From Gammaproteobacteria bacterium (GTDB lineage: Bacteria; Pseudomonadota; Gammaproteobacteria; Magnimaribacterales; TMED112): DNA of 64,000 nucleotides. Location: positions 586,243 to 650,242 of the forward strand of contig JAYQTH010000002.1 in assembly GCA_038147295.1 (NCBI GenBank), in the 5' to 3' direction. The notes beneath the pieces are model-generated. The model was not told the DNA's origin. It searched no databases and saw only the letters and a program-made list of their open reading frames with translations. Every line of letters begins with the position of its first letter. The stretch's first letter is position 1. Made by a program: the position numbers and the translations under genes. Shown piece by piece: positions 4,920 to 60,218 of this stretch.

Positions 4920-5723
4920 ATGGTTGTAATTAGACTTTCTAGAGGGGGCACAAAGAAGAGGCCTTTTTACCACATATCAGTTTCAGACAGAAGAAACAAG
5001 AGAGATGGTAGCTTTATTGAAAAAATTGGTTTTTATAATCCAATAGCCAAAGATGGAGAAGAAAAAATAAAAGTCAATCTTGAGAGATATGAGTACTGGC
5101 TATCAGTTGGTGCGCAACCAAGTGACACAGTTGAAATGCTAGTCAAAAGATCTGGCATGTCTGCAGAAGAGATCGAAAAAATTGAAAACAAAAAGAAAGA
5201 ACAACAACGTCTTAAAAAAGAAAAAGAAATATTAGCAGCTCAAGAAAAAGCTGCTGCCGAAGAAGCACCAGCCGAAGAAGCACCTGCCGAAGAAGCACCT
5301 GCTGAAGAAGCCGAAGAAGCACCTGCTGAAGAAGCACCTGCCGAAGAAGCTGCCGAAGAAGCACCGGCCGAAGAAGCACCTGCCGAAGAAGCACCTGCCG
5401 AAGAAGCACCGGCTGAAGAAGCACCAGCTGAAGAAGCACCTGCCGAAGAAGCACCTGCCGAAGAAGCACCTGCCGAAGAAGCACCTGCTGAAGAAGCACC
5501 TGCCGAAGAAGCACCTGCTGAAGAAGCACCTGCTGAAGAAGCACCTGCCGAAGAAGCACCTGCCGAAGAAGCACCTGCCGAAGAAGCACCTGCCGAAGAA
5601 GCACCTGCCGAAGAAGCACCTGCCGAAGAAGCACCTGCTGAAGAAGCACCAGCTGAAGAAGCACCTGCTGAAGAAGCACCAGCTGAAGAAGCACCTGCTG
5701 AAGAAGAAAAGAAAGATCAATAA
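4920..5723 (+). CDS. rpsP: 30S ribosomal protein S16 with long acidic (EEAPA)n C-terminal extension
   Basis: [37 protein letters not shown] core; first gene of the rpsP-rimM-trmD-rplS operon. Confidence 0.97.
5259..5699 (+). repeat. In-frame 15-nt coding tandem repeat GAAGAAGCACC[TAG]GC[CT]: 28 EEAPA units plus one EEA and one EEAA
   Basis: 441 nt = 147 codons, read directly from the sequence; variation is at synonymous positions. Confidence 0.97.
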
Positions 5724-6201
5724 TATCAATATTGTTTCTGTTGCAAAATTTGGGAAAACCCATGGATTAAAAGGGGAAATAAGGGTTAATTCATTTTGCA
5801 ATCCAGTAGAAAATATCCTGAACTACAAAAAATTTTATTTAAAAGATGGATCAGGAATTCAGATTGATTTTTTGAATTCATCTCATCCCTACATTGCTAA
5901 AGTAAAAAATATAGATTCAATTGAAGAAGTAAAAAACCTTATTAACCAAGAGATTTTTATTTCTGAAAGAGAGATGCGAAAAGATGATGATGCTATTTAC
6001 TGGAATGATTTGCTTGGGTGTAAGGTAATCAATGATTCAGAAATTTTGCTTGGAACAGTATATAAAGTTGATAATCACGGCGCATCAGATTTAATTTTTA
6101 TTAAGACAGACAGCGAAGACATTATTATCCCACTAGAAGATATTTTTCTTAGAGATTTTGATAGACACAATAAAATCCTCAGGGTTGATTGGGATATATA
6201 A
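5716..6201 (+). CDS. rimM: Ribosome maturation factor RimM (start uncertain, probably non-canonical ATC at 5716)
   Basis: [19 protein letters not shown] lies in frame upstream of the tool's TTG at 5872; [10 protein letters not shown] and HGASDL (PRC barrel); operon position. Confidence 0.88.
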
Positions 6202-9053: not shown

Positions 9054-9758
9054 ATGAAATTAAGATTACTACTATTTCTAACATATGCCTTTATAGCTCA
9101 GCCTTCAGAGGAGGTAAAATTAAAGCTTGAATCGATGCTTCCTCCAGGGGTAAATTTAAATTTTTATGAAGATGCACAAATAGATAATTTCTATGCCCTT
9201 AATGTAGCAAACAATCAAGTTATTTATATTTCTAAAGATTTTCAGTTTATTTTTGCTGGGGAGGTTATTAAATCGTCCCCTTCGGGTCTGGAAAGTGTGA
9301 ACGAACAGTACCAACGCAAACTTATTTTAAATTTGTTATCTGAAGTGCCAGAATCAGAGGCGATTCAATTTATATCTGAAAATGAAAAGCATTCAATTCA
9401 TGTTTTTACAGATGTGACCTGCGCTTATTGTCGAATATTCCATTCAAACATACGCGAATATCTTGATAGAGGAATATCAGTATCCTACCTTGCATTCCCT
9501 AGAGATGGTATGGGTGGAAGTAGCTCAGAAAATATGAAAAGTGCTTGGTGCAGTAGTGATAGAGCCTCAGCAGTCACACAACTCAAGTTAGGCAAAGATA
9601 TTGTAAAAGCTAGTTGCAAAGACCCTATTGCAAAACATTTTGAGATAGGAAGGATGATTGGTATAACGGGAACTCCATCAATCGTTCTTGGTGATGGCCA
9701 AATGTTATCAGGCTATATTCCTGCAGAAGATTTAATTAAAATACTAGATAATGGATAA
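9054..9758 (+). CDS. dsbC: Disulfide isomerase DsbC
   Basis: Signal peptide, FTDVTCAYC active site, ITGTPSIV cis-Pro loop. Confidence 0.9.
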   Translation: MKLRLLLFLTYAFIAQPSEEVKLKLESMLPPGVNLNFYEDAQIDNFYALNVANNQVIYISKDFQFIFAGEVIKSSPSGLESVNEQYQRKLILNLLSEVPESEAIQFISENEKHSIHVFTDVTCAYCRIFHSNIREYLDRGISVSYLAFPRDGMGGSSSENMKSAWCSSDRASAVTQLKLGKDIVKASCKDPIAKHFEIGRMIGITGTPSIVLGDGQMLSGYIPAEDLIKILDNG

Positions 9759-20076: not shown

Positions 20077-20724
20077 ATGAATTGGGATGAGCTAATAGAA
20101 TCAGAAACAAAAAAAGATTATTTTAAGGCAATAAAAAAAGTAATCTTGAGCGATAGTCGAAGTGGTAAATCAATTTTCCCATATCCAAAAAATTATTTCA
20201 GAGCCCTTGATTTTTGCTCTTTCGAAGATTTAAAAGTTGTGATATTGGGACAAGATCCATACCACACTTCAGGTGTTGCCGATGGTCTTGCTTTTTCATC
20301 TGGTATTTACACCTATATGCCTCCATCTTTAAGAAATATTTTTTTGGAAATTGAAGATGATGTAGGCATAAAAAACCAAAACGTATCATTGGAGGGCTGG
20401 GCAAAGCAAGGTGTACTTTTACTTAATTCATATTTATCAGTACAAGAGGGTCAACCACTATCTCACGCAAAAATAGGTTGGGAGATTTTTACAAACAGGG
20501 TTTTGATTGAGGCAAGCAGAAAGTGCAATGTTGTCTTTATGCTATGGGGCAACTATGCACGTTCAAAAAAAGATATCATTGAAGGTCAGAATTTAATTTT
20601 AGAGGCTGCTCACCCATCACCTCTTTCAGCTCATAAAGGATTTTTTGGGTGCAAGCATTTTTCAAAAGCAAATGCATATCTTGGCCGCCATGGCATTAAA
20701 CAGATTGACTGGCAATTAGCTTAG
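20077..20724 (+). CDS. ung: Uracil-DNA glycosylase (family 1)
   Basis: VVILGQDPYH, PPSLRNIF, QGVLLLN and AAHPSPLSA. Confidence 0.97.
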   Translation: MNWDELIESETKKDYFKAIKKVILSDSRSGKSIFPYPKNYFRALDFCSFEDLKVVILGQDPYHTSGVADGLAFSSGIYTYMPPSLRNIFLEIEDDVGIKNQNVSLEGWAKQGVLLLNSYLSVQEGQPLSHAKIGWEIFTNRVLIEASRKCNVVFMLWGNYARSKKDIIEGQNLILEAAHPSPLSAHKGFFGCKHFSKANAYLGRHGIKQIDWQLA

Positions 20725-21424
20725 ATTTAAATAATTTATCGGGATGTTCAAAGTTCTTAAAGATATATTGTCCATAAAGTATATTGTCTATCTCAATTTC
20801 AAAAACCTCTTTGCCAATCTTTAGCAATTCATTCTTTTCATCTGCCGTAAGATCTTTGAAGATAGCCAAGGTATTTTTGTTCGACCCTAAGTATTTTAGC
20901 CTTGCAATTATTTCCTGCCCTCTGTAGCACCCTTTGGTGAATGAAACATATTTTTCCAAATTGTATCCAAATTCATTAGGTCTATTTTTTAAAGACATAG
21001 CATTACTAATATCTACATCGAAGTGTAAGAGTTTAAGAAGATCCCAATTTTTATTACTATTGTTGGAAGCTCTTGGCATAGCAGTGGTTTTTGTAAAACC
21101 AACGCCATCATAAATTCCTGAAATAATTTTTTCTTTGATTCCGATTTCACACTTATAGAACTGCGCATATTTTTCAAGCTCCCTCTTTAGAATTTCTGCA
21201 ACATCAGCCTTGATAATAAGTTCTAAAGTTTCACTGATTATTGCTGTTGCATTAGTAATAACAAAACCTTTCTCATCACAGAAAAGCACATCTTTGTTCT
21301 GTGTTTTCTCTGAAATATCACCTGATGCTTGACCCTGGATAAATTCTAAAGACCTCTTGCCTGTAATTTCCAAGGTACAATAATTATTTAAAGTAAAATA
21401 ACTTATGTCTAAATTGCTGCTCAT
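20696..21424 (-). CDS. ygfZ: YgfZ/GcvT-like folate-binding Fe-S cluster repair protein
   Basis: LEITG...EFIQGQ and VSFTKGCYRGQEIIAR signature; ATG at 21424. Confidence 0.88.
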   Translation of the reverse strand: MSSNLDISYFTLNNYCTLEITGKRSLEFIQGQASGDISEKTQNKDVLFCDEKGFVITNATAIISETLELIIKADVAEILKRELEKYAQFYKCEIGIKEKIISGIYDGVGFTKTTAMPRASNNSNKNWDLLKLLHFDVDISNAMSLKNRPNEFGYNLEKYVSFTKGCYRGQEIIARLKYLGSNKNTLAIFKDLTADEKNELLKIGKEVFEIEIDNILYGQYIFKNFEHPDKLFKSKLIASQSV

Positions 21425-21638
21425 AAAAAAACTTAATTTTAAAGCAAGAAGAGGAATGAAAGAAACTTCTGAAATCTTAGGCAAGCTTCTTAATTCCATC
21501 AATGCATTTACTGATAACGAATTAAATCAACTTGAATGCCTTCTAAGCTTAGATGACCAATATCTGTTTGATTTATTTTTCAAGCAAAAAGATAAATTTG
21601 ATGAGGAGTTTCACGATTTAAAAAAATATTTAAAATGA
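21405..21638 (+). CDS. sdhE: Succinate dehydrogenase flavinylation factor SdhE
   Basis: KARRGMKE motif and LL...DQ.LF; divergent from ygfZ as in enterics. Confidence 0.8.
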   Translation: MSKLLLIKKLNFKARRGMKETSEILGKLLNSINAFTDNELNQLECLLSLDDQYLFDLFFKQKDKFDEEFHDLKKYLK

Positions 21639-21640
21639 AT

Positions 21641-21667
21641 GAACTTAACTTAATTTTTGAGGTCAAA
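21641..21667 (+). promoter_or_regulatory. Sigma-E-dependent promoter upstream of rpoE
   Basis: GAACTT-N15-GTCAAA matches the sigmaE consensus and ends 7 nt before the ATG at 21675. Confidence 0.75.
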
Positions 21668-21674: not shown

Positions 21675-22214
21675 ATGAAAGGACAAAATATCTCAGAACT
21701 TGTAGAGCTATCTCAATCTGGAGATGAATCAGCTTTTGAAATTTTGTTTAAAACTTTTCAAACAAGATTGCATCATTCTTTATTCAAAGTGTTAAGAAAC
21801 TATCATGAAACCGAAGATATTGTGCAACAGGCTTTTATGAGAGCATGGGAGAAGATTGGCACTTTTAAGGGGGAAGCAAATTTCTATACTTGGCTATATA
21901 GGATTGGCTTTAATTTAGCTATCACAAAAATAAATAAATCAAGGGAGAATCAAATAGATGAAGATTTTGAGCTAACTCTAAAATCAGATGACAATGTTGT
22001 TCAAAATCTCACGGATAGACGCCTAGAAAATAAAATTATTGACTTACTCAATCAGATATCAGAAGAACAAAGAACAGCATACATCCTTTGTGAAATTGAC
22101 TCTAAGAATTATGAGGAAATTGCAAATATAACCGATGTACCAATTGGCACTGTCAGGTCAAGAATCTTTAGAGCAAGACAATTTTTAATGGAGAACCTAA
22201 AAAACGAATTATGA
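21675..22214 (+). CDS. rpoE: ECF sigma factor RpoE/AlgU
   Basis: EDIVQQAFMRAWEKI..FKGEANFYTWLYRI and VPIGTVRSRIFRAR; context rseA-degP-lepA. Confidence 0.92.
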   Translation: MKGQNISELVELSQSGDESAFEILFKTFQTRLHHSLFKVLRNYHETEDIVQQAFMRAWEKIGTFKGEANFYTWLYRIGFNLAITKINKSRENQIDEDFELTLKSDDNVVQNLTDRRLENKIIDLLNQISEEQRTAYILCEIDSKNYEEIANITDVPIGTVRSRIFRARQFLMENLKNEL

Positions 22215-22945
22215 AAAATATAACAGATTTTGATTTACAAAGACTATCATCATTTATTGATGGTGAAATGAGCAGAGAAGACATCAGAGAGCTTGTCTTG
22301 GATATGGGGAAAAACTCAGAATTAAAGGAATGTTACCTTAAGATGGTAGAACTGAGCCATGCATCTTCTCACATTAAAACATTAAGCTTTACAAAAAAAT
22401 TAAGTAACCTTTCATTGAATTCTCTACTTAAGGCTTTTTTTGAAAAGCTTGTTGCTCCTGTAGGTGTTTTTGCAGCAGGTGTCGTTATGAGCTATACAGT
22501 AGTGAATTCTATTGTTTCAGAGAATTACGAAAATAATGAAACTGCTGCTGTTATCGCTCAAGCTATTTCTTCAGCAGAAGCAAAGCAAACTCTGCTAAAC
22601 ATTCAAAATGAAGAAATAATACAATTTGCATCCAGACACTTTTCAAACACTCCAGACGCAAATATCCTTCCTGTTGGTTATGCTCCTAATTGGGTGCCAT
22701 CTGGTTTTAAATCTGATTCTGCTAGATCAAGTAAATTCATTAATAACTCTAAAAGAAAACAATTTTCTATTTTCGTGACTAGTCCAGAATCTTTTTCTTT
22801 ACCTGATGGCTCATATAGAAAGGAAAATTTTATTCTTATTAAAGAAACACATAACCACAACGGCGTTGCTCATACTCTTGCAGTTTTTGGGGATATAGAT
22901 ATTGAATCTGGTAAAAAAATCCTTAACTCTATAGAAGTTAAATAA
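22211..22945 (+). CDS. rseA: Anti-sigma factor RseA/MucA apparently fused to a RseB/MucB C-terminal domain
   Basis: N-terminal RLSSFIDGE, one TM helix, then APNWVPSGF...FSIFV...LAVFGDI..ESGKKILNSI. Confidence 0.72.
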   Translation: MKNITDFDLQRLSSFIDGEMSREDIRELVLDMGKNSELKECYLKMVELSHASSHIKTLSFTKKLSNLSLNSLLKAFFEKLVAPVGVFAAGVVMSYTVVNSIVSENYENNETAAVIAQAISSAEAKQTLLNIQNEEIIQFASRHFSNTPDANILPVGYAPNWVPSGFKSDSARSSKFINNSKRKQFSIFVTSPESFSLPDGSYRKENFILIKETHNHNGVAHTLAVFGDIDIESGKKILNSIEVK

Positions 22946-22951: not shown

Positions 22952-24343
22952 ATGAAAAAACTAATTTCTTTCTTTCTATTGCTTTCTTCTGCACTGTTTT
23001 CGGAGAGCCTTGATTTTTCTGAGCTTGTTAAAGAGCAAAGAAATTCAGTAGTAAACATAGAATCAACCAGACGAATTGAAACACAAATGAGCAGATCTTA
23101 TGGCGGTTTTCCCGAGGAATTATTTAGAGAATTCGGTTTTCCAATGCCAGATCAAAGAGAGCAAAGACCTCAACAGCGCGAGGCCGTTAGTACAGGATCA
23201 GGCTTTGTTATATCCAGTGACGGTTATGTAATAACGAATTTCCATGTAGTGCAGGATGCCGACGAAGTAGTAGTCAAATTTTACGATAGAAAAGAGTTTA
23301 AAGCAGAAATAATTGGTACAGATGAATTAAGTGATATTGCATTGTTGAAAATTACAGACGATGAATTTATCCCAGTTGAGCTTGGCAACTCCGACATAGT
23401 AGAACAGGGAGATGGTGTTATAGCGATTGGATCACCTTACAACTATGACTTTAGTGTTACTTTTGGAATTATAAGTGCTAAGGGGCGTGGCATCACATCA
23501 GGCAGAGGAATAGGTGACTATGTGCCCTACTTACAAACTGATGCTGCTGTTAATAGAGGAAATTCAGGAGGCCCATTATTTAATCTGGATGGAGAGGTTA
23601 TAGGTATAAATTCCCAGATTTACTCAAGGTCTGGTGGAAATGAGGGCCTAGCATTTGCTATACCAATAAATGTTGCCTTGGAGGTTATAGAACAACTTAA
23701 AGAAAGTGGAAAAGTATCTCGAGGCTACCTTGGAGTTCAAGGTGGTGAAGTTTCTAGTGATCTTGCCATAGCTCTTGGTATGGATAAGCCTTATGGTGCA
23801 TTGGTCAGGTCTGTCGTTGAAGGCGAGGCTGCAGAGTCAAGTGGGATCCTGCCTGGTGATGTTATTGTTGAAATTGGTGGCAAGGAAATAATTTATTTTA
23901 AAGATTTGCAACACAACATTGGAAGAACAAGACCAGAAACCGAAGTGGTTGCTAAAATCTTCAGAGAAGGAAAGTACATAAACCTTGATATTATTGTTGG
24001 TGAACTACCTGTAGTGCAAGAAGTAAATGAAACGAAAGAGGAACCAAAAGATCCAGATTATCCGCTGGGCATGAATCTTAGAGAGGTTGACCCAAACAAC
24101 AGAGCACCAAATGATCCAGAATATGGTTTAAGAGTATTAAGAGTTTTCTCCAATTCTCCAGCGTTTGGTCAAATTTTTGAAGGTGACGTAATAACCAAAA
24201 TCACCTTTAAAAATAAATCTTTTGAAATTACAACTTTAGATAGTTTTGTTAAAACACTTGAATCGTTTGATACAGGCGACATAATTCTTATAATTGGTAC
24301 CCGCAATGGTGCCAACTTATTTGAGCCTGTAGAAATTGAGTAA
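22952..24343 (+). CDS. HtrA-family serine protease with two PDZ domains (DegP/MucD-like)
   Basis: Signal peptide; [19 protein letters not shown] and [15 protein letters not shown] catalytic triad motifs. Confidence 0.93.
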
Positions 24344-26126
24344 TACTAGAAACTTTTCAATTATCGCCCATATCGATCATGGGAAATCAACTTTATCCGA
24401 TAGAATAATCGAGCATTGTGGAGGGTTGAGTAAAAGAGAGATGAAATCTCAGGTCCTAGATACACTTGAGCTTGAGCGAGAAAGAGGTATCACAATTAAG
24501 GCTCAATCGGTCTCATTACAATATAAAAATAATTCTGGAGAATACAACCTCAATCTAATTGATACTCCAGGACATGTAGATTTTTCTTATGAGGTTTCAC
24601 GTTCTCTTGCTGCTTGTGAAGGCGCTTTATTAGTTGTTGACGGCTCTCAGGGGGTAGAGGCACAAACTCTTTCAACTTGCTACAAGGCCATTGATTTAGG
24701 GCTGGAAGTTATCCCTGTTATAAACAAGATTGATCTACCACAAGCAGACCCCGATAGAGTAAAGAAAGAGATAGAAGAAATTATAGGCATAGATGCATCT
24801 GATGCCATCTGCGTTAGTGCAAAAGACGGCACGGGTTTAACCGAACTTTTAGACTTGGTTGTTAGAGAAATTCCTCCACCCAAGGATAAAAGTGATGATC
24901 CATTGCAGGCGTTGATAATTGATTCATGGTACGACAATTTTCTTGGAGTAATTTCACTGATCAGAGTTTTTAGTGGCAGCATAAAAAGAGGAGAAAAATT
25001 TATTGTTAAATCCAATGGTCAAACTTTCACAGCCGATACCCTAGGTGTATTTACTCCAAAAAAGAACGATAAAGATAGCCTTAGCTCAGGCCAAGTAGGT
25101 TTTTTGGTTGCAAATGTTAAAGAATTAAAATCAGTTCCAGTTGGCGATACAATTATTTCTGCAAAGCTCCCGGAAACAAATGCCCTTGATGGTTTTGAAA
25201 AAGTGCAGCCCCAAGTTTTTGCTTCATTTTATCCGATTGACTCAAATGAGTATCAGTCATTTAGAGAAGCACTTCAAAAACTCAGTCTGAATGATTCGTC
25301 TGTTGTATTTGAACCTGAGAATTCAGAGATTCTTGGTAGTGGTTTTAGGTGTGGTTTTTTAGGAACACTTCATATGGAGGTAATTAAAGAGAGACTGGAA
25401 AGAGAGTATGGATTAAGCCTCATCACTACAGCTCCAAGCGTGGCCTATGAAATATTAAAAACAAACGGAGAGGAGATAATGATATCTTCACCATCTCAGC
25501 TGCCGACAACCAATGAAATAAATGAAATAAGAGAACCCATGATCAAATCAACTGTATTGTGTCCTGATAAGTATGTTGGAGACGTTATTGAATTAGCAAT
25601 GTCAAAAAGAGGAATCCAGAAGGATCTTCAATATTTGGGAGGACAGGTATCATTAACTTTTGATATGCCACTTTCAGAAATAGTTATGGATTTCTTTGAC
25701 ACATTAAAATCAAAAAGCCAAGGATATGCATCAGTTGATTTTGTATTTGATCGATATCAGCACTCAGATCTTGTAAAAGTTGATGTTGCCATAAATGGTC
25801 TTGTTGTAGATTCTCTTTCGGCCATCATGCATAGAGGCGACGCTCAAAGAAGAGGTAGAGAAATCGCTAAGAGATTAAAGGACGTTATTCCTAGACAAAT
25901 GTTTGAGATTCCAATACAAATAATGTTAGGCAGTAAAATTATTGCCAGGGAGAGTGTTAAAGCTTTTAGAAAAAATGTTACTGCAAAACTATATGGTGGA
26001 GATGTTACTAGAAAGAAGAAACTGCTTGAAAAGCAAAAGGCAGGAAAGAAGAAAATGAAGCAGATAGGAAAAGTTGCGCTACCACAAGAAGCTTTTTTAA
26101 GCTTTTTATCTAACGAGAAAAAGTAA
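24336..26126 (+). CDS. lepA: Elongation factor 4
   Basis: [25 protein letters not shown] and [12 protein letters not shown]; TTG start overlaps the protease stop by 8 nt. Confidence 0.98.
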
Positions 26127-26128
26127 TT

Positions 26129-27037
26129 ATGTTAGAGGTATTTTTTTCACTGATTACACCCTTGGCAAATATCTTTTGGTTTAGCCTTTTAAATCTAGGG
26201 ATATGTCTCATTTCAATTCATTGGATTTATGTTCGAAACCAAACAGGGGATAATCCAACACAGCACAGAGCCCTACAATCTATTGGGCTTGTGCTGGCTC
26301 TACTTGCTATTGGAATTCTTTGGATAAAGCAATGGAACATTGGTGATTTACTTGCGTTTTATACAGTCTTTTCGGGTGTAGTTTATTTATCCACGTTAAA
26401 TCTAGACAAAAACGTTTTAAAAGAAGCAAGAGGTTGGTTTTTATCAATATTGTTTGTATTTGTCATACGCGGTTATATTTATGAGCCATGGCAGATACCA
26501 TCTAGCTCAATGAAACCGAACCTTGAGATTGGTGATTTTGTTTTAGTAAATAGAAATGCTTATGGTTTGGAAATCCCATTTACAGGCAGAGCAAAAATTT
26601 TATCCCGATCACCAGAAATTGGAGAAGTTGTGGTTTTCTTCCCACCGCATAAACCAACAACACCATTTGTAAAAAGAGTGATTGCAAAAGGTGGCGACAA
26701 AGTTACTTATGCAAATAAAAAGTACTTTGTTAATGGCAATGAGCTTGAGGCAAGTTTCTTTTCTGAGGATATTTCAGGCGGCAATCTTTTTTATGAACAA
26801 AATAACAACCTTAGCTACGTCATAAGAAAAATACCCTCTAGACTTGCAGTAAACGGATCTTGGGAGATACCTGAAGGCAGTTTTTTTGTTTCGGGGGACA
26901 ATAGGGATAATTCAAGCGATAGTCGTGAATGGGGATATATCACTGAAGATGTCATATGGGGCAGAGCAGACTTTATCTGGATGTCTTGGCCTCAAGGCAA
27001 TTTCCCTAATTTTTCCAGAGTGGGCAAGGTTGAGTAA
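26129..27037 (+). CDS. lepB: Signal peptidase I with extended hydrophobic N-terminus
   Basis: EPWQIPSSSMKPNL..GDFVLV, FVKRVI and GDNRDNSSDSREWG. Confidence 0.93.
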   Translation: MLEVFFSLITPLANIFWFSLLNLGICLISIHWIYVRNQTGDNPTQHRALQSIGLVLALLAIGILWIKQWNIGDLLAFYTVFSGVVYLSTLNLDKNVLKEARGWFLSILFVFVIRGYIYEPWQIPSSSMKPNLEIGDFVLVNRNAYGLEIPFTGRAKILSRSPEIGEVVVFFPPHKPTTPFVKRVIAKGGDKVTYANKKYFVNGNELEASFFSEDISGGNLFYEQNNNLSYVIRKIPSRLAVNGSWEIPEGSFFVSGDNRDNSSDSREWGYITEDVIWGRADFIWMSWPQGNFPNFSRVGKVE

Positions 27038-27043
27038 GCTTTA

Positions 27044-27928
27044 ATGATGAAATGTGGTTTTGTGACAATTATTGGTAAAACCAATGTCGGCAAATCTACA
27101 TTTTTAAATGCATTCATAGGCAAGAAAGTCTCAATTACTTCAAAAAAATCACAAACAACTAGATCAAATATTTATGCTGTAAAAACTACCAAAAGTCTTC
27201 AAGCAATATTCATTGATACTCCTGGAATTCACCTAAGAACTGAAAAAGCCCTCAATAAAGTGCTAAGAAAAAAACCTCTGGAAGCTATTAATGATATTGA
27301 TGTGATTTTGTATATGGTATCTGGAACAAAATTTGATCAAGTAGATCAAGACGCCCTGAATTTAATAAAAAACTCTACTGCAAAAAAGATTTTATTAATA
27401 AACAAAATTGATTTAGTTGCCGACAAATCCGCTTTATTTGAATTTGTTAAAAATCTCGAAGAAAAAAATCTTTTTGAATCTATCATTCCAATTTCTTCAG
27501 AAAAAGAATTAGGATTCGACATTGTACTAGATGAGCTTGAGAAAGCATTACCTGAAAATGATCTATTTTATCCACCGGAGGGGTTTGATTTTCAGAGCAT
27601 TAATTTTGAAATCAGTGAATTAATTAGAGAAAAGGTTATTCGGTTTCTTGGTGATGAGCTGCCCTATGAAACTGCCATCTTCCTTGAAAATGTAAGTGAC
27701 TTAAAATCGCACTTTGAAATTAATGCATTAATTTATGTAGCAAAACAAAGTCAGAAAAAGATAGTCATTGGAGCAGAGGGGTCAAAGATTAAACAAATTG
27801 GTACCAATGCAAGAAAAGAATTAGAAAACCATTTGGGTAGAAAAGTAAACCTAAACTTATGGTGTAAAGTTAAGAAAAACTGGCTGGATAACCCCATCAC
27901 ACTTGAGAGCCTGGGCATAAAGAACTAA
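27044..27928 (+). CDS. era: GTPase Era
   Basis: GKTNVGKST, QTTR, DTPG, NKID and KH-domain VIGAEGSKIKQIG. Confidence 0.96.
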   Translation: MMKCGFVTIIGKTNVGKSTFLNAFIGKKVSITSKKSQTTRSNIYAVKTTKSLQAIFIDTPGIHLRTEKALNKVLRKKPLEAINDIDVILYMVSGTKFDQVDQDALNLIKNSTAKKILLINKIDLVADKSALFEFVKNLEEKNLFESIIPISSEKELGFDIVLDELEKALPENDLFYPPEGFDFQSINFEISELIREKVIRFLGDELPYETAIFLENVSDLKSHFEINALIYVAKQSQKKIVIGAEGSKIKQIGTNARKELENHLGRKVNLNLWCKVKKNWLDNPITLESLGIKN

Positions 27929-28605
27929 TGATTACCAACCTACAAGAGGCTTATGTTATACATGCTAAAGCCTATAAAGAAACAAGCATATTGGTAACCT
28001 TCTTTACTAAAAATGACGGAAAGGTAAGCGCAATTGCCAAAGGAGCAAAAAGGCCAAAATCCAAATTTTCAGGAACACTTGAACCATTCCAGAAGATTGC
28101 TATTGACTACAGCGGCAGAACATCCTTGAAAACACTTAAAAGCAGCGAATGCATTGAGCCATTCAAGGAATTTTGCACTAGAAAAAACTTATATTCGGCC
28201 TTTTATGTAAATGAGCTTATTAATTGCATGGTAAAGTCAAATGAAGATCCAATAGAATTATTTAATCTTTATGAGCAATGCATACTTCAATTATATGATG
28301 ATAGTGATACAAATAAGGTCTTACGCAATTTTGAGTTCAATATGATGAAAGTTTTGGGGTACGAAATAAATTTTCAATCGGACTATAGAAGTGGAGATCC
28401 ATTGGATGCTAATTCATTTTATACTTATGCCCCTCAAATGGGCTTTACTATTTCAGATAGTGGGTATGGCGGAGAACAATTAATTGAAATTAGAGAAAAA
28501 AAATTCAGTAAAGAAAATTTGGAATTAGCGAAACAAATAATTAAACAAACTTTAGACTTTTATTTTGAAGAATTGAATATTAATAGCAGAAGTTTTTTTA
28601 GATGA
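27928..28605 (+). CDS. recO: DNA repair protein RecO
   Basis: AYVIHAKAYKETS, GKVSAIAKGAKRPKS and YVNELI; follows era. Confidence 0.9.
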   Translation: MITNLQEAYVIHAKAYKETSILVTFFTKNDGKVSAIAKGAKRPKSKFSGTLEPFQKIAIDYSGRTSLKTLKSSECIEPFKEFCTRKNLYSAFYVNELINCMVKSNEDPIELFNLYEQCILQLYDDSDTNKVLRNFEFNMMKVLGYEINFQSDYRSGDPLDANSFYTYAPQMGFTISDSGYGGEQLIEIREKKFSKENLELAKQIIKQTLDFYFEELNINSRSFFR

Positions 28606-38660: not shown

Positions 38661-39908
38661 CTAAAACTCTGGGTACGCTTCAATACCTATTTCTTCAGCA
38701 TCCAACCCTTTCTTTTGAATTTCGTCAGAAGCTCTAACTGGAGCCACCAGATTGAGTAAAAATAGGAATGCATAGGTCAATACAAACCCCCAAAGGACAA
38801 TTGAAACAACGCCATACAGTTGAGAACCAAATGTAGCTTCTGCATTAGTAAATGGCACAACCATGACACCAAATATTCCAGCAGCTCCATGGGCGGAAAT
38901 AGCGCCTACAGGATCATCAACCTTAAAGAATTGTTCAAATGCAACCAATGCACCATAACAAATTAGACCGCCAACTGCTCCAATTAAAGTAGCTTCATAA
39001 CCACTTGGAGATAATGGGTCTGCTGTTATTGAAACTAGTCCTGATATGGCACCATTTAATGCATAAATGATGTTGGTTTTTTTGAAAAACACTCTGGCAA
39101 CCACTAAACATGAAATAACACCTCCTGCAGCAGCCATATTGGTATTTAGGAATACTTGAGCTACAGCATTAGCGTTTTCAACGTCTTGTATTGCAAGCTG
39201 TGAACCTCCATTAAAACCAAACCAACCCAACCACAGAACAAAAGTTCCCAATGCAGCAATAGGAATATTTGCACCGTAAAGTTTCTTTGTTTCTGCTACA
39301 GGGAAGAGTCCATAACGCTTACCTGATACCTTGCCATATTTACCAAGTCTTGGGCCAATGAATATTGCTGCAGCTAAGGCACATGCAGCTCCAATTAAAT
39401 GGACTGTTCCTGAACCAGCAAAATCTGAATAGCCAGCCTGTTTTAAGAATCCGCCACCCCAATTCCAGAAGCCTTGTACAGGGTAGATGAAAGCTGCTAT
39501 AAAGACGACCAAAGCAAAAAATGGCCATTGGTTCATTCTCTCAGCAACAGCACCAGATACAATTGAGCAAGCGGTGGCAACAAAAACTACTTGAAAGAAA
39601 AAATCAGCAGATTCTGAGTAGCCATAACCATCAACGACTGTATCAGCAGTAGTGCTTCCAAAACTAAAGTCGTAAGCTGGCACGATTGTTCCAGCAGGCA
39701 CATCACCTGGGTACATCACCATGTAGCCACATAGCAAATACATAAAGCATGCTATTGAATAAAGGCCGATATTTTTTGTAACTATTTCAGCCGTATTTTT
39801 TCTTCTGACAAGACCTGCTTCAAGCATGGTAAAGCCCGCTGCCATCCACATGACTAAAGCAGCAGTTAACAGCATATATAACGTATTTAAAGCGTATCCT
39901 AGTTCCAT
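38661..39908 (-). CDS. amtB: Ammonium transporter
   Basis: AGFTMLEAG, DFAGSGTVH, WLGWFGFNGGS and DDPVGAISAHG (both pore His present). Confidence 0.95.
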   Translation of the reverse strand: MELGYALNTLYMLLTAALVMWMAAGFTMLEAGLVRRKNTAEIVTKNIGLYSIACFMYLLCGYMVMYPGDVPAGTIVPAYDFSFGSTTADTVVDGYGYSESADFFFQVVFVATACSIVSGAVAERMNQWPFFALVVFIAAFIYPVQGFWNWGGGFLKQAGYSDFAGSGTVHLIGAACALAAAIFIGPRLGKYGKVSGKRYGLFPVAETKKLYGANIPIAALGTFVLWLGWFGFNGGSQLAIQDVENANAVAQVFLNTNMAAAGGVISCLVVARVFFKKTNIIYALNGAISGLVSITADPLSPSGYEATLIGAVGGLICYGALVAFEQFFKVDDPVGAISAHGAAGIFGVMVVPFTNAEATFGSQLYGVVSIVLWGFVLTYAFLFLLNLVAPVRASDEIQKKGLDAEEIGIEAYPEF

Positions 39909-39917
39909 ATTAGCCCC

Positions 39918-40514
39918 TTAAAATGATGCTCCGACAGTAAAAAATAGCCCGTCTTCATCTTCTAACCCTGATGCACCATCGGCCGTAAATGAGCTATAAC
40001 CCAAAGACGCGTCATACTCACCTAAAGAAAATCCGTAACCTACTAAAAAGTTTGATCCTGTGTCTTCGTAATCTCCATAAGAAAATGAGAAATCACCAAA
40101 ACCATATGATATGTCATAGTAGTCTCCAAACTCATCGCCAAGGTAGTACGAGAAACCCACACCGGCATATGACAATGCAACGTAGATTTCTGAAAAGTCG
40201 GCATCTGTTACTTCAGGGTAAGCATAATTGATGTAACCAACATCCCATCCAAGACCACCATCGGTTTCACCCGCGTAGCCGAGATAGGTATCAAGTTCTA
40301 GACCTGCACCACCAAAAGCAACATTAGAACCCCAAGTACCAGCATAAAAGCCACCTTCAGAGCTATAATCAAATCCACCACTGTATGCGGGAGCATCCAT
40401 TGTTTGGGACATCCCACGCCAGAAGTAATTTGATGAAAATGAAAAGTTCGAGGACACACCTGCAAACACATTCAACGTTAGAAATATGGCTAAAGCCATC
40501 ATTCCTTTTTTCAT
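39918..40514 (-). CDS. TorF-family putative porin (TIGR02001-like)
   Basis: Signal peptide, SNYFWRGMSQT...PA.SGGFDY, FYAGTWGSNV, ELD.Y.GY and terminal Phe. Confidence 0.85.
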   Translation of the reverse strand: MKKGMMALAIFLTLNVFAGVSSNFSFSSNYFWRGMSQTMDAPAYSGGFDYSSEGGFYAGTWGSNVAFGGAGLELDTYLGYAGETDGGLGWDVGYINYAYPEVTDADFSEIYVALSYAGVGFSYYLGDEFGDYYDISYGFGDFSFSYGDYEDTGSNFLVGYGFSLGEYDASLGYSSFTADGASGLEDEDGLFFTVGASF

Positions 40515-40553
40515 AAAAACATCTCCTTATTAAAAATAAGTGTGTTAAGAATT

Positions 40554-40586
40554 GAAAAAGGGCTAAACCTTCATAGTTTAGTAGCC
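40554..40586 (-). terminator. Intrinsic terminator-like hairpin directly 3' of the riboswitch
   Basis: Minus strand GGCTACTAAAC-TATGAAG-GTTTAGCC followed by CTTTTT. Confidence 0.6.
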
Positions 40587-40636
40587 GCGTTCCTTCAGCT
40601 TTCGCTTACTTCCGTCCTCGAAGAGGATGAACGATT
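40586..40636 (-). ncRNA. Glutamine-I (glnA motif) riboswitch aptamer
   Basis: Minus strand AUCGUUCA-UCCUCUUCGAGGA-CGGAAGUA-AGCGAAAGCU-GAAGGAACGCG gives P1 CGUUC/GAACG, P2, P3 with a GNRA loop and E-loop strands; upstream of porin-amt. Confidence 0.85.
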
Positions 40637-40654
40637 AGACGCTGCTCCTTTTTT

Positions 40655-40720
40655 ACCATGGAGTATGGTTTAACTTTTAACCCATGTTATATGGGCTCCT
40701 TTTAACCCATGGAGTATGGG
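40655..40720. repeat. Three tandem 15-bp palindromes (A/C)CCAT-N5-ATGG(T/G) in 25-26-bp repeat units
   Basis: ACCATGGAGTATGGT (40655), CCCATGTTATATGGG (40681) and CCCATGGAGTATGGG (40706). Confidence 0.9.
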
Positions 40721-40757
40721 GATAAAAAATATCTTCTTTATAAACACTATTTATAAA

Positions 40758-40798
40758 TTAACATAAACTAAATTAATGTTGTAGAATGTAAATGTCAA
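40758..40798. promoter_or_regulatory. Overlapping divergent sigma70-like promoters for gltBD (+) and porin-amt (-)
   Basis: Plus strand TTAACA-N18-TAGAAT (40758-40787); minus strand TTGACA (40798-40793)-N17-TAATTT. Confidence 0.45.
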
Positions 40799-40832
40799 TA
40801 AAAAATTTACATAAAGTCGAAAAAGCAACAAA

Positions 40833-43800
40833 ATGAATGAGCATTTAGATCACAAAGACAATTGCGGCACTGGATCTATCTTTAATATTTCAAATCAACC
40901 TGATCACACAATAATTACAAGAGCTCTAAAATCTCTTATCAGCATGAAGCATCGTGGAGCCGTTTCTCATGACGGTTTAACGCCAGATGGCTGTGGGCTC
41001 CTTTTAGATCTAGACAAGAATTTTTTTCAAAAGGTGATGTTGGATGAACAAAATAAAATCCTACCTTCTGATTTTGCAATTGGAGTTTTTTTCGTCAATA
41101 AAAATTACGACTTTGAGTCAGAAATGCTAAAAATATGTGCTCAGCATTCCCTTGAAATACTGGGCACAAGAATACTTAAAACAGACTCAAAAATTCTTGG
41201 CAAAGAAGCAGCCAATTCCATGCCAAATATTTTGCAGCTATTTGTTAAAAGTAAAAATCAAAAAGTTGAGCTTGAAGCTGCTCTCTTTAAAGCAAAGAAA
41301 TATTGTGATACGCATCTCGATGCAGAAAGACAAAGTTATTGTGTTAGTTTTTCAAGTGAAACAATAGTCTACAAAGGTCTTGTGCAGCCTGAGGTTTTTG
41401 CCAATTTTTACTCTGATTTGACAGACAACAGTTTTAAAACTGCATCTGCAGTTTTTCATGTTAGATTCTCTACAAATACCTCACCTAAATGGCATCTTGC
41501 GCAACCTTATAGAGTGCTGGCTCACAATGGTGAAATTAATACCATTAGTGGTAACAGAAATTGGGCTCTAGCAAGGACTAAAGCATTTAATTCTGCAAGA
41601 TTAGGAGATATGAAAGACTATCAACCTCTTATCGGACAAAGTGGCTCAGACTCATCTTCTTTGGATCATATTCTTGATTTATTTCGCGTTGGAGAAATTA
41701 AAATTGCCCGTGCAGCTAGAATGTTGATTCCACCATCTTGGCAAAATACAGATTTAATGGATCCAGATGAAAAAGCTTTTCATGAATTTAATTCCATGCA
41801 TATGGAAGCTTGGGATGGCCCAGCATTGATTTGTTTTCAGTCTAAAGATTACACCTGTTGTTTTCTAGATAGAAATGGGTTGAGACCAGCAAGAATAGAG
41901 CACTTTTCCGATGGTAGTGTGAGTATTGCTTCTGAAGTGGGCACCAACCTAGAGTCAAATATTAAGGTTAGAAAAACCGATAGGTTGGGGCCTGGTGGGT
42001 TAATTTTATTTGATCGAGCGCAGAAAAAAGTTCTTACAAACGATGAAGTAGACAAAGAACTTTCAAGAGCTATGCCCTACAGATTGTGGCTAAAAGACCA
42101 CTCTAGACATTTAGAAGCAAATCTACATGAATATTCAGGGCCACAAATGAAGGAAATTTCCGATGCATATTTCGCTGAAGCCTCAAAAAACTTTCAACTA
42201 ACAAGGGAAGAATCATTGAATATCTTTCATACAGCTGAAGAGGGTAATGAGCCTACAGGATCTATGGGAGATGATACACCTTTAGCACCTATCAGTAGCA
42301 AGGTAAGATCAATTTATGATTATTGTCGTCAAAAATTTGCTCAGGTAACCAATCCTCCTATCGACTCTTTGCGCGAAAAATCAGCGATGTCTCTGGAAAC
42401 ATGCATTGGTCCTGAACGCAATATCTTTGAAGAGACCAAAGAACATGCTTCTAGAATAGTAGTAAATTCGCCAATTCTTTCCCATAAGAAATACAATCTT
42501 TTACTCAAAAGCAAAAAGTTTAAGCTAAAGAAATACCCTCTAGAGTATTCGCGAAGTATGGGGCTAGAAGAATCTATGAGCTTTCTTTTGGAGGAGATAC
42601 TATCTGACGTTAAAAATGGTACTGGAATAGTTGTTTTGGATGAAAGGCAAATATCGAGCAATAATCCTGTCATTCCTGCACTTTTAATTACATCAGCCCT
42701 ACACAGTGCTCTTATCAGACAAAATTTAAGAGTTGCATGCAATATCGTGGTGAATTCCGCTTCTGCACGAGATAATCATCAAATTTCTTGCCTAATAGCA
42801 TTCGGAGCAACTTGCGTTCATCCATGGCTAGGCCTGCAAGCTGTATTAAAAAATGCAAAAAAAACTCAAACCGATCTAAGCAAAACAGAGCTATGTGTAT
42901 CTTACAGACGTGCACTGAATAAAGGGTTGCTTAAAATTATGTCAAAAATGGGTATATCCAATGTATCCAGCTACCGAGGTTCAAGGCTGTACGATGTGGT
43001 TGGCTTTTCAAAAAAACTGAGAAAGATATGTTTTTCAGAAATGCATTCGAGTATTGATGGTGATTGCTTTAACGATATTCATCAGAAAATGCTTGCTGTT
43101 TTAGACTCCGACCTTGATACAAGTCCGGTAGCTACAGGATTACACAAATACACATCCAATGGTGAGCAGCATGCATTTAACCCGGATGTAGTATTGCAGT
43201 TGCAAAATGCACTATCGTCTGGATCCTTTAGTGGGTTCAAAAATTTCTCTAGTTTGGTAGAAAATAGATCCCCACTTGCTGTGAGAGATTTTTTTAATGT
43301 TAAGTCAAACAAAGACCCAATTGCTATTTCTGAGGTTGAGTCGATCGAATCAATTCTTCAAAGGTTTGATTCTGCAGGAATGAGTTTGGGTTCCTTGTCG
43401 CCTAAGGCCCACGAAACATTGGCAGCAGCAATGAATAGTCTTGGTTGTAGATCCAATTCAGGAGAGGGTGGGGAGGATCCAGCAAGATACAATACACAGT
43501 TATCCTCTAAGATAAAACAAATAGCATCAGGCAGGTTTGGAGTTACCCCAAGTTATCTTGTAAATGCAGAAGTTTTACAAATAAAAATTGCTCAAGGTGC
43601 AAAACCAGGAGAAGGTGGTCAGTTGCCTGGTACAAAAGTTGACCCTTATATTGCTAAACTTCGATACTCAAAACCGGGAGTAACACTTATATCGCCACCA
43701 CCTCACCACGATATTTATTCCATTGAGGACCTGGCCCAACTTATACATGATTTAAAACAGATTAACGATCAGGCAATGGTGTCTGTAAAGCTAGTATCAG

Positions 43801-45233
43801 AGCCTGGTGTTGGGATTGTTGCTGCAGGAGTTGTAAAGGCCAATGCAGATTTTATAACTATTTCTGGTCACGACGGCGGGACAGGAGCAAGCCCAATATC
43901 ATCGATAAGGCACGCTGGATCCCCTTGGGAAATTGGTATGCATGAAGTGCAAAATATATTACTGGAAAGCAATTTAAGATCCATGGTAAAACTGCAAACA
44001 GATGGAGGCTTGAAAGTAGGTTTAGATGTTATCAAAGCGGCAATCTTTGGAGCTGATTCTTTTGGTTTTGGCACAGCACCAATGATTGCTATGGGCTGTA
44101 AATACCTAAGAATCTGCCATCTCAATAACTGTGCGACTGGAGTAGCTACTCAACACATCAAAATCATTGATAAACAATTTGATGGAGAAGTTGAGAAGGT
44201 GCGGAATTACTTTTTATTTGTGGCACAAGAAGTCCGTGAATATCTCGCTCAGCTAGGCTATAAGTCTCTTGATGAGATTATTGGAAAGACAAATTTATTG
44301 CATTTGAAACCAGAAACAAAGTCAAAGGCAGAAAAACTTGGACTTGCCACCTTAAAAGAAAGATTCAGGCCCAACAAGAAACAGTACTGTACAGAAACAA
44401 ACAAATTAAACCTATCTCTCAACGACCATTCCTTATCAAAACTAATTCAACAAAAAACCACTCAACACATCAAAAAAGGGAAGGGTGGCTCTTTCACATT
44501 CAAGATTAGCAATACTCATAGATCTATTGGTGGCAGATTATCTGGTGATATTGCTAGAAAATACGGAGTTGAGGGCTTTCCAGAAACGCTGATTTTAAAT
44601 TTTTCAGGCATAGCAGGGCAATCGTTCGGGTGCTGGAACTCCAAAGGCGTTGAGATGAAGCTCAAGGGTTTTGCAAATGATTACGTTGGCAAAGGCATGA
44701 ATGGTGGAAAAATCACTCTTATACGACCCAGAGGTATGCAAGAGGACCGTTCTGTAGTTATGGGTAACACTTGCTTATTTGGTGCGACTGGAGGTGAGTT
44801 CTATGGCAACGGAATTGCTGGTGAACGATTTGCAGTACGAAATTCTGGCTGCAAAGCTGTAGTTGAGGGTGCAGGAGATCATTGCTGCGAATATATGACT
44901 GGTGGAGAAGTTATTGTGTTGGGCAATGTAGGGCATAATTTTGGAGCTGGGATGACAGGTGGTTTTGCATATGTTCTTGATGAAGACAGAAGTTTTGTTG
45001 ATAAATGCAACAAAGAATCTGTAACCTTTAATCGCATCACTAATCAAGAGATGGAAGCCCATAAATCTTATCTTAAAGATAGAATTTATTGTCATCTTAA
45101 AGAGACTGGCAGTGAAGTTGCACAAAAAATTCTGGCTGACTTTGATAAATATCAAAGCAAATTTTGGATCGTTACTCCAAATGCAGAAAATTTAGCCAGA
45201 ATCATAAAAAATACTAGAGAGGAAGCAGCTTAA
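40833..45233 (+). CDS. gltB: Glutamate synthase large subunit
   Basis: N-terminal NCG (Ntn Cys), HVRFSTNT, HNGEIN, IKIAQGAKPGEGGQLPG, C..LRICHLNNC and the GXGXG C-terminal domain. Confidence 0.97.
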   Translation: MNEHLDHKDNCGTGSIFNISNQPDHTIITRALKSLISMKHRGAVSHDGLTPDGCGLLLDLDKNFFQKVMLDEQNKILPSDFAIGVFFVNKNYDFESEMLKICAQHSLEILGTRILKTDSKILGKEAANSMPNILQLFVKSKNQKVELEAALFKAKKYCDTHLDAERQSYCVSFSSETIVYKGLVQPEVFANFYSDLTDNSFKTASAVFHVRFSTNTSPKWHLAQPYRVLAHNGEINTISGNRNWALARTKAFNSARLGDMKDYQPLIGQSGSDSSSLDHILDLFRVGEIKIARAARMLIPPSWQNTDLMDPDEKAFHEFNSMHMEAWDGPALICFQSKDYTCCFLDRNGLRPARIEHFSDGSVSIASEVGTNLESNIKVRKTDRLGPGGLILFDRAQKKVLTNDEVDKELSRAMPYRLWLKDHSRHLEANLHEYSGPQMKEISDAYFAEASKNFQLTREESLNIFHTAEEGNEPTGSMGDDTPLAPISSKVRSIYDYCRQKFAQVTNPPIDSLREKSAMSLETCIGPERNIFEETKEHASRIVVNSPILSHKKYNLLLKSKKFKLKKYPLEYSRSMGLEESMSFLLEEILSDVKNGTGIVVLDERQISSNNPVIPALLITSALHSALIRQNLRVACNIVVNSASARDNHQISCLIAFGATCVHPWLGLQAVLKNAKKTQTDLSKTELCVSYRRALNKGLLKIMSKMGISNVSSYRGSRLYDVVGFSKKLRKICFSEMHSSIDGDCFNDIHQKMLAVLDSDLDTSPVATGLHKYTSNGEQHAFNPDVVLQLQNALSSGSFSGFKNFSSLVENRSPLAVRDFFNVKSNKDPIAISEVESIESILQRFDSAGMSLGSLSPKAHETLAAAMNSLGCRSNSGEGGEDPARYNTQLSSKIKQIASGRFGVTPSYLVNAEVLQIKIAQGAKPGEGGQLPGTKVDPYIAKLRYSKPGVTLISPPPHHDIYSIEDLAQLIHDLKQINDQAMVSVKLVSEPGVGIVAAGVVKANADFITISGHDGGTGASPISSIRHAGSPWEIGMHEVQNILLESNLRSMVKLQTDGGLKVGLDVIKAAIFGADSFGFGTAPMIAMGCKYLRICHLNNCATGVATQHIKIIDKQFDGEVEKVRNYFLFVAQEVREYLAQLGYKSLDEIIGKTNLLHLKPETKSKAEKLGLATLKERFRPNKKQYCTETNKLNLSLNDHSLSKLIQQKTTQHIKKGKGGSFTFKISNTHRSIGGRLSGDIARKYGVEGFPETLILNFSGIAGQSFGCWNSKGVEMKLKGFANDYVGKGMNGGKITLIRPRGMQEDRSVVMGNTCLFGATGGEFYGNGIAGERFAVRNSGCKAVVEGAGDHCCEYMTGGEVIVLGNVGHNFGAGMTGGFAYVLDEDRSFVDKCNKESVTFNRITNQEMEAHKSYLKDRIYCHLKETGSEVAQKILADFDKYQSKFWIVTPNAENLARIIKNTREEAA

Positions 45234-60116: not shown

Positions 60117-60218
60117 ATGCAGAAATTTAAAAATATTTTATTCGTAATCATCAGCACACTAGTGCTCGCCAACTGCGGTGGCGGTGGCGGTGGCGGCTCA
60201 GAACCGGCACCAGTACCA
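60117..60218 (+). repeat. Direct repeat copy 1 (lipoprotein leader); copy 2 at 62129-62230
   Basis: 98 of 102 nt identical, compared by eye; the SD region AGGAG[CT]AATA is also shared. Confidence 0.93.

Follow-up and report, generated by a model that had tools for sequence, protein, structure and literature searches.

A fused RseA-RseB C-domain protein as the probable sigma-E anti-sigma factor of marine SAR86 bacteria

How can a sigma-E regulon be gated where the genes for RseA and RseB have given way to a single reading frame? RseA/RseB (MucA/MucB) form a textbook two-signal gate, in which outer membrane protein (OMP) signals activate the protease and lipid or lipopolysaccharide (LPS) signals remove RseB. 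SAR86 is an uncultured lineage that ranks among the most abundant bacterial clades of the surface ocean. We analyzed a 64-kb stretch of a marine gammaproteobacterial genome (contig JAYQTH010000002.1, positions 586,243 to 650,242; GC content ∼36%), which we call the window throughout and which carries one open reading frame (ORF) between an rpoE-like gene and a gene for a periplasmic protease. An earlier note, made from the letters of the window, had read this ORF as an RseA-like N-terminal domain and transmembrane helix joined to the C-terminal domain (CTD) of RseB. Our comparisons bear out this fused architecture within one ORF, and we consider both the architecture and the homology of its C terminus to the RseB CTD very likely. 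We are confident, slightly less firmly, that the protein functions as an anti-sigma-E factor, and we think it probable that the sigma-E (RpoE/AlgU-type) envelope-stress system of SAR86 has this gene product as its anti-sigma factor, an RseA-RseB(CTD) fusion working by the mechanism proposed below.

The strings that the earlier note quoted (IIQFASRHF, YAPNWVPSGF, KQFSIFV, and TLAVFGDIDIESGKKILNSI) are all present in the translated ORF, and the E. coli motifs it set beside them are correct, as translated rseB contains FSWTPTWLPQGF, FSFSVNV, and ITIVGELPPQTAKRIAENI. Searches with single sequences gave little: phmmer with the window protein against PDB sequences returned only chance matches (cytochrome bc1 subunit 9, via the membrane helix), the profile of the protein family reached MucB at an E value of 1.7 only, and hhalign of the family against the single E. 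coli sequences assigned probabilities of 12% to RseB and 1% to RseA. At so great a divergence such searches carry no information, and RseB and RseA each had to be represented by an alignment of relatives; those used with hhalign consist of recovered relatives and the E. coli proteins. The family profile then matches the RseB/MucB alignment with a probability of 96.8% (E = 2.2e-10), placing the CTD on E. coli RseB residues 220–312. With deep-branching members added, the probability is 97.6% (E = 3.2e-12), and residues 157–242 of the window protein pair with E. coli RseB 221–312 in an alignment that runs across the whole domain; both the entry motif W-x-P-x-G-F and the terminal helix are part of it. 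RseB homology begins at about residue 145–156 of the fused protein, opposite E. coli RseB 203–220.

Domain models agree in placement. Pfam MucB_RseB_C (PF17188) aligns to residues 156–241 of the window protein over profile positions 6–96 of 97 (E = 0.11, 13 bits), and the NCBIfam RseB model PRK09455 aligns to residues 153–243 over positions 219–315 of 319 (E = 0.059). When 25 diverse family members are searched, MucB_RseB_C matches 22 (best E value 4.4e-4), the window protein itself remaining sub-threshold. Other Pfam matches (Rnk_N, SHOCT-like, DUF5532, and others) are weak, sporadic, and scattered across members, and we discarded them as noise.

The predicted structure leads to the same family. 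In AlphaFold2 (AF2) models, the predicted local distance difference test score (pLDDT) of the CTD is ∼80–90 (∼80 in the full-length model). Foldseek searches of the PDB return RseB/MucB chains only, all with a probability of 1.00, as the top seven and the top nine matches (6in9, 6jau, 2v42, 2v43, and 6in8); the next matches have E values ≥0.08. The best match is the MucB CTD in 6in9_A (E = 3.5e-5), and the root mean square deviation from 2v43_A is 1.9–2.2 Å over 86 columns. Within the family, the CTD has a pairwise identity of 0.64, with 26 of 89 columns invariant, and it carries two clade-specific invariant motifs that are not found in RseB/MucB (LPDGxYxKENF and FGDIDxESGKKILNSI). The C-terminal parallels to RseB seen in the earlier note are thus matched by both the profile-profile comparison (97.6%, E = 3e-12) and the fold. 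Its reading stood or fell with the last 90 residues resembling MucB_RseB_C in sequence and fold, and they do so in both respects, given this alignment and top PDB fold matches that are all RseB/MucB.

The N-terminal part resembles RseA more faintly. In a comparison with the RseA alignment, residues 6–48 pair with RseA 1–38 (probability 79.7%, E = 1.5e-5), and three helices are predicted in the AF2 model (residues 6–16, 22–34, and 36–65). Pfam RseA_N matches one of the 25 family members (E = 0.0048), and two deep-branching members described below score 23.3 (P0096) and 21.2 bits (P0108) against a cutoff of 24. The RseA-like N-domain of the earlier note is accordingly a weaker match than the CTD, at 79.7% (E = 1.5e-5) and 21–23 bits in the deep clade, and a consistent one. 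The predicted membrane helix also stands: the protein has a sole hydrophobic segment, peaking at residues 80–98 (Kyte-Doolittle mean of 2.0 in a 19-residue window), and in 25 of 25 members the N-terminal flank is net positive and the C-terminal flank net negative or neutral, which predicts an N-in/C-out topology by the positive-inside rule.

Between membrane and CTD lies the best-conserved segment of the protein, a predicted helix at residues 118–144 with a mean pairwise identity of 0.75 and 9 of 27 columns invariant (Ser-121, Glu-123, Ala-124, Leu-128, Glu-135, Ile-136, Phe-139, Ala-140, and His-143). The tethers on either side are variable (pairwise identity 0.33 for residues 104–117 and 0.41 for residues 145–155). 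In the periplasm-only AF2 model (residues 106–244; mean pLDDT 79), the helix has a pLDDT of ∼80 and the predicted template modeling score (pTM) is 0.72.

The locus holds little else of the canonical machinery. The ORF ends 6 nt before the start of the protease gene (22952), with no gene in between, which agrees with the earlier remark that no separate rseB or rseC precedes the protease; both are missing from the operon in all 21 SAR86 loci. The E. coli order at this place is rpoE-rseA-rseB-rseC-lepA-lepB, so the fusion ORF stands where rseA+rseB(+rseC) would together be found, and the protease takes the mucD slot of a Pseudomonas-type operon. When we searched the window by tblastn with E. coli RseB, RseC, RseA, RseP, DegS, and DegQ, only rpoE and the single MucD-type protease gene were found. 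RseA, RseB, RseC, and RseP gave no tblastn match in the ±10-kb flanks of the gene in 21 SAR86 species, and neither degS nor a second HtrA gene was detected by tblastn beside the MucD-type protease in the window or in the 21 SAR86 loci. The LolA-like N-domain of RseB, MucB_RseB (PF03888), has no match and no room in the fused protein, which is for this reason not a full member of the RseB family but has its CTD only. That this large domain is lost from the locus, as had been suggested, is in line with the empty tblastn search with E. coli RseB in the window and 21 loci. There is also no separate signal peptide of the kind found in secreted RseB/MucB; the CTD is the C terminus of a membrane-anchored protein encoded in one ORF.

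The gene is a regular feature of the clade. Its family comprises ∼80 protein clusters, almost all of 243–247 amino acids, which carry no precomputed Pfam domains and are called hypothetical where they are named at all. A HMMER search with the family profile against 1.84 billion representative proteins returned only 36 proteins at E ≤ 0.001, mostly family members or their fragments; a few others come from the deep-branching clade, and one is P0113, both described below. In a scan of species-representative genomes, we found the gene in 21 species, all of them SAR86 or unclassified marine Gammaproteobacteria metagenome-assembled genomes; fused gene and synteny are common to the 21 SAR86 species. 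Members are 47–55% identical overall, and the window protein is 95% identical to its counterpart in SAR86 MED-G83. The order serA-udg-ygfZ-like-sdhE-rpoE-fusion-protease-lepA-lepB-era-recO-adk is kept in 20 of 20 loci that extend upstream; the remaining locus (L014) starts at the fusion gene, at a contig end, and has the identical downstream order. In the literature we searched, there is no description of an RseA-RseB fusion, of MucB_RseB_C in anti-sigma factors, or of sigma-E regulation in SAR86; domain-architecture databases may list a few such proteins.

Two kinds of relatives bear on the origin of the fusion. A deep-branching, low-GC (34–36%) marine clade contains three proteins (P0096, P0098, and P0108; 228–233 amino acids) with full-length homology and ∼22% identity to the window protein. 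The genes for P0096 (L026, 1019–1720) and P0108 (L028, 8001–8693) lie in the context sdhE-rpoE-X-Do protease-lepA, X being the gene itself. These proteins share the SS.EA+ start of the conserved helix, the NW.P.GF entry motif, and the CTD with the SAR86 fusions; they differ from them in lacking the LPDG and FGDID motifs, and the P0096 contigs also differ in keeping rnc. The clade is very rare, as a homologue search with P0096 returned only itself. Its LepA is 62% identical to that of the window, a value that is uninformative for placing the clade; because the identity is no higher than this, the fusion may predate SAR86 proper.

The other relative, P0113 (301 amino acids; L025, 8001–8906), comes from a 161-kb metagenomic contig of 54% GC whose relatives are annotated as Pseudomonadales, and it occupies the same slot (rpoE, fusion, Do protease, and lepA). 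It is the only canonical-looking protein that the SAR86 family profile reaches among the 1.84 billion proteins (E = 8.9e-6), and it exceeds the Pfam cutoffs of both RseA_N (25.0 versus 24) and MucB_RseB_C (73 versus 30.1). Its nearest relatives are separate RseA (∼200 amino acids) and RseB (∼310–340 amino acids) proteins. With a stand-alone RseA, P0113 shares 61% identity over residues 2–175, a stretch that reaches through the alpha-I motif (...EEKQRRLRAYLNQHDRM); with a stand-alone RseB it shares 58% identity over the last 170 residues, and what follows the motif corresponds, again at 58%, to the final ∼130 residues of an RseB. At the junction, RseA residue ∼172 is joined to RseB residue ∼213. 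The architecture equals that of the SAR86 fusion, but P0113 keeps the full periplasmic region of RseA, including the canonical alpha-I motif EEKQRRLRAYLNQH. P0113 is a singleton, and a 306-nt non-coding gap follows it where the 3′ part of mucB or mucC would be expected. The contig is seen in two samples, and the gene may represent a real deletion or an assembly artifact; it is apparently an independent and recent RseA-RseB(C) fusion. Its junction, together with the separate genes in its relatives, fits one deletion that removed the boundary between rseA and rseB in frame. In canonical operons the two genes are neighbors with a common orientation, and they overlap (by 1 nt in E. coli). We infer that the SAR86 fusion arose much earlier than that of P0113, by one in-frame deletion beginning at the 3′ end of rseA and reaching into rseB, and this route has apparently been used at least twice.

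What is known of the canonical complexes suggests how the fused protein could work. RseA/MucA and RseB/MucB meet primarily where the alpha-I helix of the former docks on the CTD of the latter, a contact that is also sufficient; the N-domain of RseB/MucB is a LolA-like, lipid A-binding sensor, and in the RseA-RseB complex the segment with the DegS site is buried in a hydrophobic pocket of RseB (PMC7400510). The term shielding domain used in the earlier note for the retained part is hence imprecise: the docking domain is kept, and the N-domain that senses lipid and buries the cleavage site is lost (PMC7400510). In the mechanism we propose, the cytoplasmic domain would sequester sigma-E at the membrane, and sigma-E would drive its own operon from a GAACTT-N16-TCAAA promoter. 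Helix 118–144 would dock on the CTD tethered to it, in cis, as alpha-I of RseA/MucA docks in trans on the CTD of RseB/MucB. The helix-CTD unit would form a compact folded cap near the membrane, by which the regulated proteolysis of the anti-sigma factor would be held back. Activation would then depend on protease-side signals or on destabilization of the helix-CTD module. The coupling of helix and CTD is suggested by their joint conservation and by the pTM of 0.72 with a helix pLDDT of ∼80; that an intramolecular helix-CTD lock gates proteolysis we put at a little short of an even chance. As the lipid/LPS-sensing N-domain is gone, the lipid-triggered release of RseB known from E. coli and Pseudomonas presumably cannot operate in the same way, and the loss of this domain would imply a different signal logic. 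A further step, which we regard as speculative and on the whole doubtful, is that the only visible sigma-E switch of SAR86 has no arm for sensing lipid/LPS and possibly no site-1 protease of the DegS type, and works as a cis self-locked helix-CTD cap opened by unfolding, by a ligand of the CTD, or by the MucD-type protease.

Several observations weigh against the main reading. The window protein falls below the curated thresholds of every RseA/RseB model (for MucB_RseB_C, 13 bits versus 30.1), and Pfam RseA_N (PF03872) does not match it at E ≤ 10. Pfam RseA_C (PF03873) matches none of the 25 members at E ≤ 10, and hhalign of the trimmed periplasmic regions of the family and of RseA detects no RseA_C similarity (E = 0.77). 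The RseA likeness that had been claimed for the periplasmic stretch around IIQFASRHF consequently finds no statistical support, with that E value and RseA_C matching 0 of 25 members; an RseA_C homology of helix 118–144, tried with the trimmed alignments, could not be demonstrated. The helix is a candidate counterpart of alpha-I by its position, its conservation, and the pTM of the model. Because the stretch from the membrane helix to the conserved helix is just ∼14 variable residues long, there is no counterpart of the RseA DegS site. In canonical systems, moreover, it is the N-domain that buries the cleavage site, and the fused protein has no such domain; protection by the CTD alone is putative.

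The same facts can be read differently. The CTD may have been kept for a new job, as a sensor (of a periplasmic ligand such as OMP C termini or lipid species) or as an adaptor that recruits the co-encoded MucD/DegP-type protease, in which case the fused protein would link sensing to proteolysis directly, without DegS-type logic. The clade-specific CTD motifs LPDGxYxKENF and FGDIDxESGKKILNSI, which RseB/MucB lack, would suit such a role, as would the finding that the sole HtrA-family gene in the 64 kb encodes a MucD-type protease and lies 6 nt downstream, and the missing equivalent of the DegS-cleavage region between membrane helix and conserved helix. The strongest conservation, however, is found in the helix beside the CTD, as a cis helix-CTD complex predicts, and the documented role of the CTD in known systems is the docking of alpha-I (PMC7400510); we judge a new job unlikely, while giving it more weight than any other alternative. 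Canonical logic could also operate in trans if an unlinked RseB N-domain or LolA-like protein docked on the tethered CTD, with DegS/AlgW and RseP acting as usual. Because the interface between the N- and C-domains of RseB/MucB is extensive (∼850–925 Å2; PMC7400510), such a split arrangement is physically conceivable. Against it, tblastn finds no RseB, RseC, RseP, or second HtrA in the window or the ±10-kb flanks in 21 SAR86 species, SAR86 genomes are small (1.0 Mb in the complete genome CP097968.1), and no split RseB was found in the literature searched. We hold this arrangement to be improbable.

Could the CTD have no RseB ancestry, being a generic small β-sheet periplasmic domain of anti-sigma factors (DUF4367-like) that resembles RseB by fold likeness or convergence? 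Its identity to RseB/MucB is indeed only 11–20% in structural alignments, the window protein stays below the Pfam cutoff for MucB_RseB_C, and DUF4367 gives weak matches in at most 2 of 25 members and in a divergent relative (P0081). MucB_RseB_C, in comparison, matches 22 of 25, the hhalign alignment spans the full domain (97.6%, E = 3e-12), and the top PDB fold matches are all RseB/MucB, with a sharp drop thereafter. The gene also fills the rseA+rseB slot, from which rseB is missing, and the independent fusion P0113 is 58% identical to a bona fide RseB over this part, which together leave a non-RseB origin very improbable. Least credible is the view that genome streamlining has left the CTD behind as a piece of rseB that has no function and is decaying, although SAR86 genomes are reduced and rseC and rnc have also gone from the operon. 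The conservation pattern effectively refutes it: proteins that are only 47–55% identical overall share 26 invariant columns in the CTD (of 89) and 9 in the helix (of 27), the reading frame is unbroken and keeps its length (243–247 amino acids in ∼80 clusters and in 21 species) and occurs also in the deep-branching clade, and the predicted fold is confident. A pseudogene or a mis-called ORF was rejected on the same grounds of conservation and constant length.

If the cis helix-CTD mechanism holds, the RseB CTD would be an autonomous regulatory module, and the RseA/RseB checkpoint would exist here in a minimal form made of one protein. The clade-wide fusion would amount to a natural deletion experiment on what the C-domain of RseB does alone and on whether sigma-E signaling can run without lipid sensing. 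A so far hypothetical gene of a globally abundant, uncultured marine lineage gains an annotation, and a simple evolutionary route, one in-frame deletion between overlapping genes, is suggested; the known RseA/RseB mechanism is not overturned.

The features of the operon are collected in the table; in the window, they follow the order sdhE, sigma-E-type promoter, rpoE, fusion ORF, MucD/DegP-type protease, lepA, lepB, era, and recO.

Table. Positions in the window of the sigma-E operon and of the parts of the fused protein
Feature	Position	Strand	Description
sdhE (mechanical ORF)	21405-21638	+	directly upstream of rpoE
Sigma-E-type promoter	21641..21667	+	-35 GAACTT, 16-nt spacer, -10 TCAAA (pattern match)
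rpoE-like extracytoplasmic function (ECF) sigma factor	21676..22214	+	Pfam Sigma70_r2, Sigma70_r4_2, Sigma70_ECF
Fused anti-sigma factor ORF	22211..22945	+	244 amino acids, uninterrupted
Cytoplasmic N-terminal anti-sigma domain	22211..22390	+	residues 1-60; LSSFIDGE motif
Single transmembrane segment	22448..22519	+	residues 80-103, predicted N-in/C-out
Conserved periplasmic helix	22562..22642	+	residues 118-144, SSAEAKQTLLNIQNEEIIQFASRHF; candidate counterpart of the RseA/MucA alpha-I helix
RseB/MucB C-terminal domain	22676..22942	+	residues 156-244
MucD/DegP-type periplasmic Do serine protease	22952..24343	+	463 amino acids; Pfam Trypsin_2, PDZ_2 (two copies); N terminus signal-peptide-like
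lepA-lepB-era-recO	24336..28605	+	conserved downstream part of the rpoE operon neighborhood

The sigma factor is 37% identical to E. coli RpoE, and its best NCBIfam model is TIGR02939 RpoE (E = 1.5e-39); its 136 bits do not reach the equivalog cutoff of 236 bits. The stop codon of rpoE and the start codon of the fusion ORF share an ATGA (22211–22214). The downstream protease scores 418.6 bits against TIGR02037 degP_htrA_DO (cutoff 416.2) and 244 bits against the DegS equivalog model, far under the cutoff of 423 bits, and the 3′ end of its gene overlaps the start of lepA.

A promoter of the autoregulatory type (GGAACTT-N16-TCAAA, as in ECF02/RpoE-like modules) is present as a motif upstream of rpoE. 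In the window, 8 nt lie between the end of the −10 element and the rpoE ATG at 21676 (7–9 nt across the SAR86 loci, in L002–L022 at about 9424–9470), and in 19 of 19 SAR86 loci inspected at this place both elements are kept at equal spacing and position, amid diverged sequence between and around them. This conservation supports a sigma-E-like promoter specificity of the sigma factor and autoregulation. From the position of the promoter, the start of rpoE moves from the TTG at 21657, the mechanical ORF start, which falls inside the promoter, to the ATG at 21676, which is likely the true start. Because the promoter ends only 7–9 nt ahead of the rpoE ATG in the SAR86 loci, the rpoE mRNA is predicted to be leaderless or nearly so.

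Around the operon, lepB abuts era, and rnc (RNase III) is missing between them in the window (27037–27044), as well as in each of the 19 SAR86 loci extending to era; rnc is present at this place in both deep-clade contigs with P0096 (L026 and L027) and in the high-GC relative with P0113 (L025). Upstream, the mechanically called ygfZ-like ORF (20696–21502, minus strand) and the sdhE ORF overlap head-to-head by ∼100 nt, and each probably starts at an internal codon (MSSNLD... and MKETSE...); the GCV_T Pfam match of the ygfZ-like gene is weak in the relative L025. Elsewhere in the window, ribosomal protein S16 (4920–5723, plus strand; 267 amino acids, Pfam Ribosomal_S16 at residues 8–68) carries a C-terminal extension of ∼185 residues made up almost entirely of tandem EEAPA repeats, and the long antisense ORFs at 5212–5801 are probably by-products of this repeat. 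A protein of 985 amino acids (46664–49624, minus strand) has an M14 zinc-carboxypeptidase domain at residues 110–283 as its sole recognized domain, with ∼700 residues besides. Metabolic genes lie at 56682–59540 (plus strand) and 38661–46627: those for malate synthase and isocitrate lyase of the glyoxylate shunt are adjacent, and close by are genes for an ammonium transporter and for both subunits, large and small, of glutamate synthase. A protein of 669 amino acids with FG-GAP/VCBS-like repeats (60117–62126, plus strand) is probably secreted or surface-located, and the neighboring ORFs at 59591–59953 and 63546–63914 have no Pfam match.

Comparison with E. coli RseA and RseB (PDB ID 3M4W; RseB, 2V42/2V43) reveals a common operon position (rpoE, anti-sigma factor, ..., lepA-lepB-era-recO) and a sigma-E-type autoregulated promoter. 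The anti-sigma motif LSALMDGE of RseA corresponds to LSSFIDGE in the SAR86 fusion, both proteins have a single N-in/C-out membrane helix, and the CTD of RseB is homologous to, and has the same fold as, the last 90 residues of the fusion. Two polypeptides in E. coli stand against one in SAR86, where the RseB signal peptide and LolA-like N-domain (residues 25–208) are missing, as is rseC, and where the periplasmic region of RseA is replaced or compressed to ∼14 variable residues and one conserved helix. With P. aeruginosa MucA and MucB (algU-mucABCD; PDB IDs 6IN8, 6IN9, and 6JAU), the SAR86 operon shares the MucD-type Do protease directly downstream, and it differs in lacking the MucB N-domain and mucC. 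The MucA residues for MucB binding (Trp-158, Arg-162, and His-170) do not map confidently onto the SAR86 helix, of which only the conserved His-143 at the helix end is reminiscent. Taken together, the fused protein would work as an RseA that has acquired the docking half of RseB, and it is a full member of neither family.

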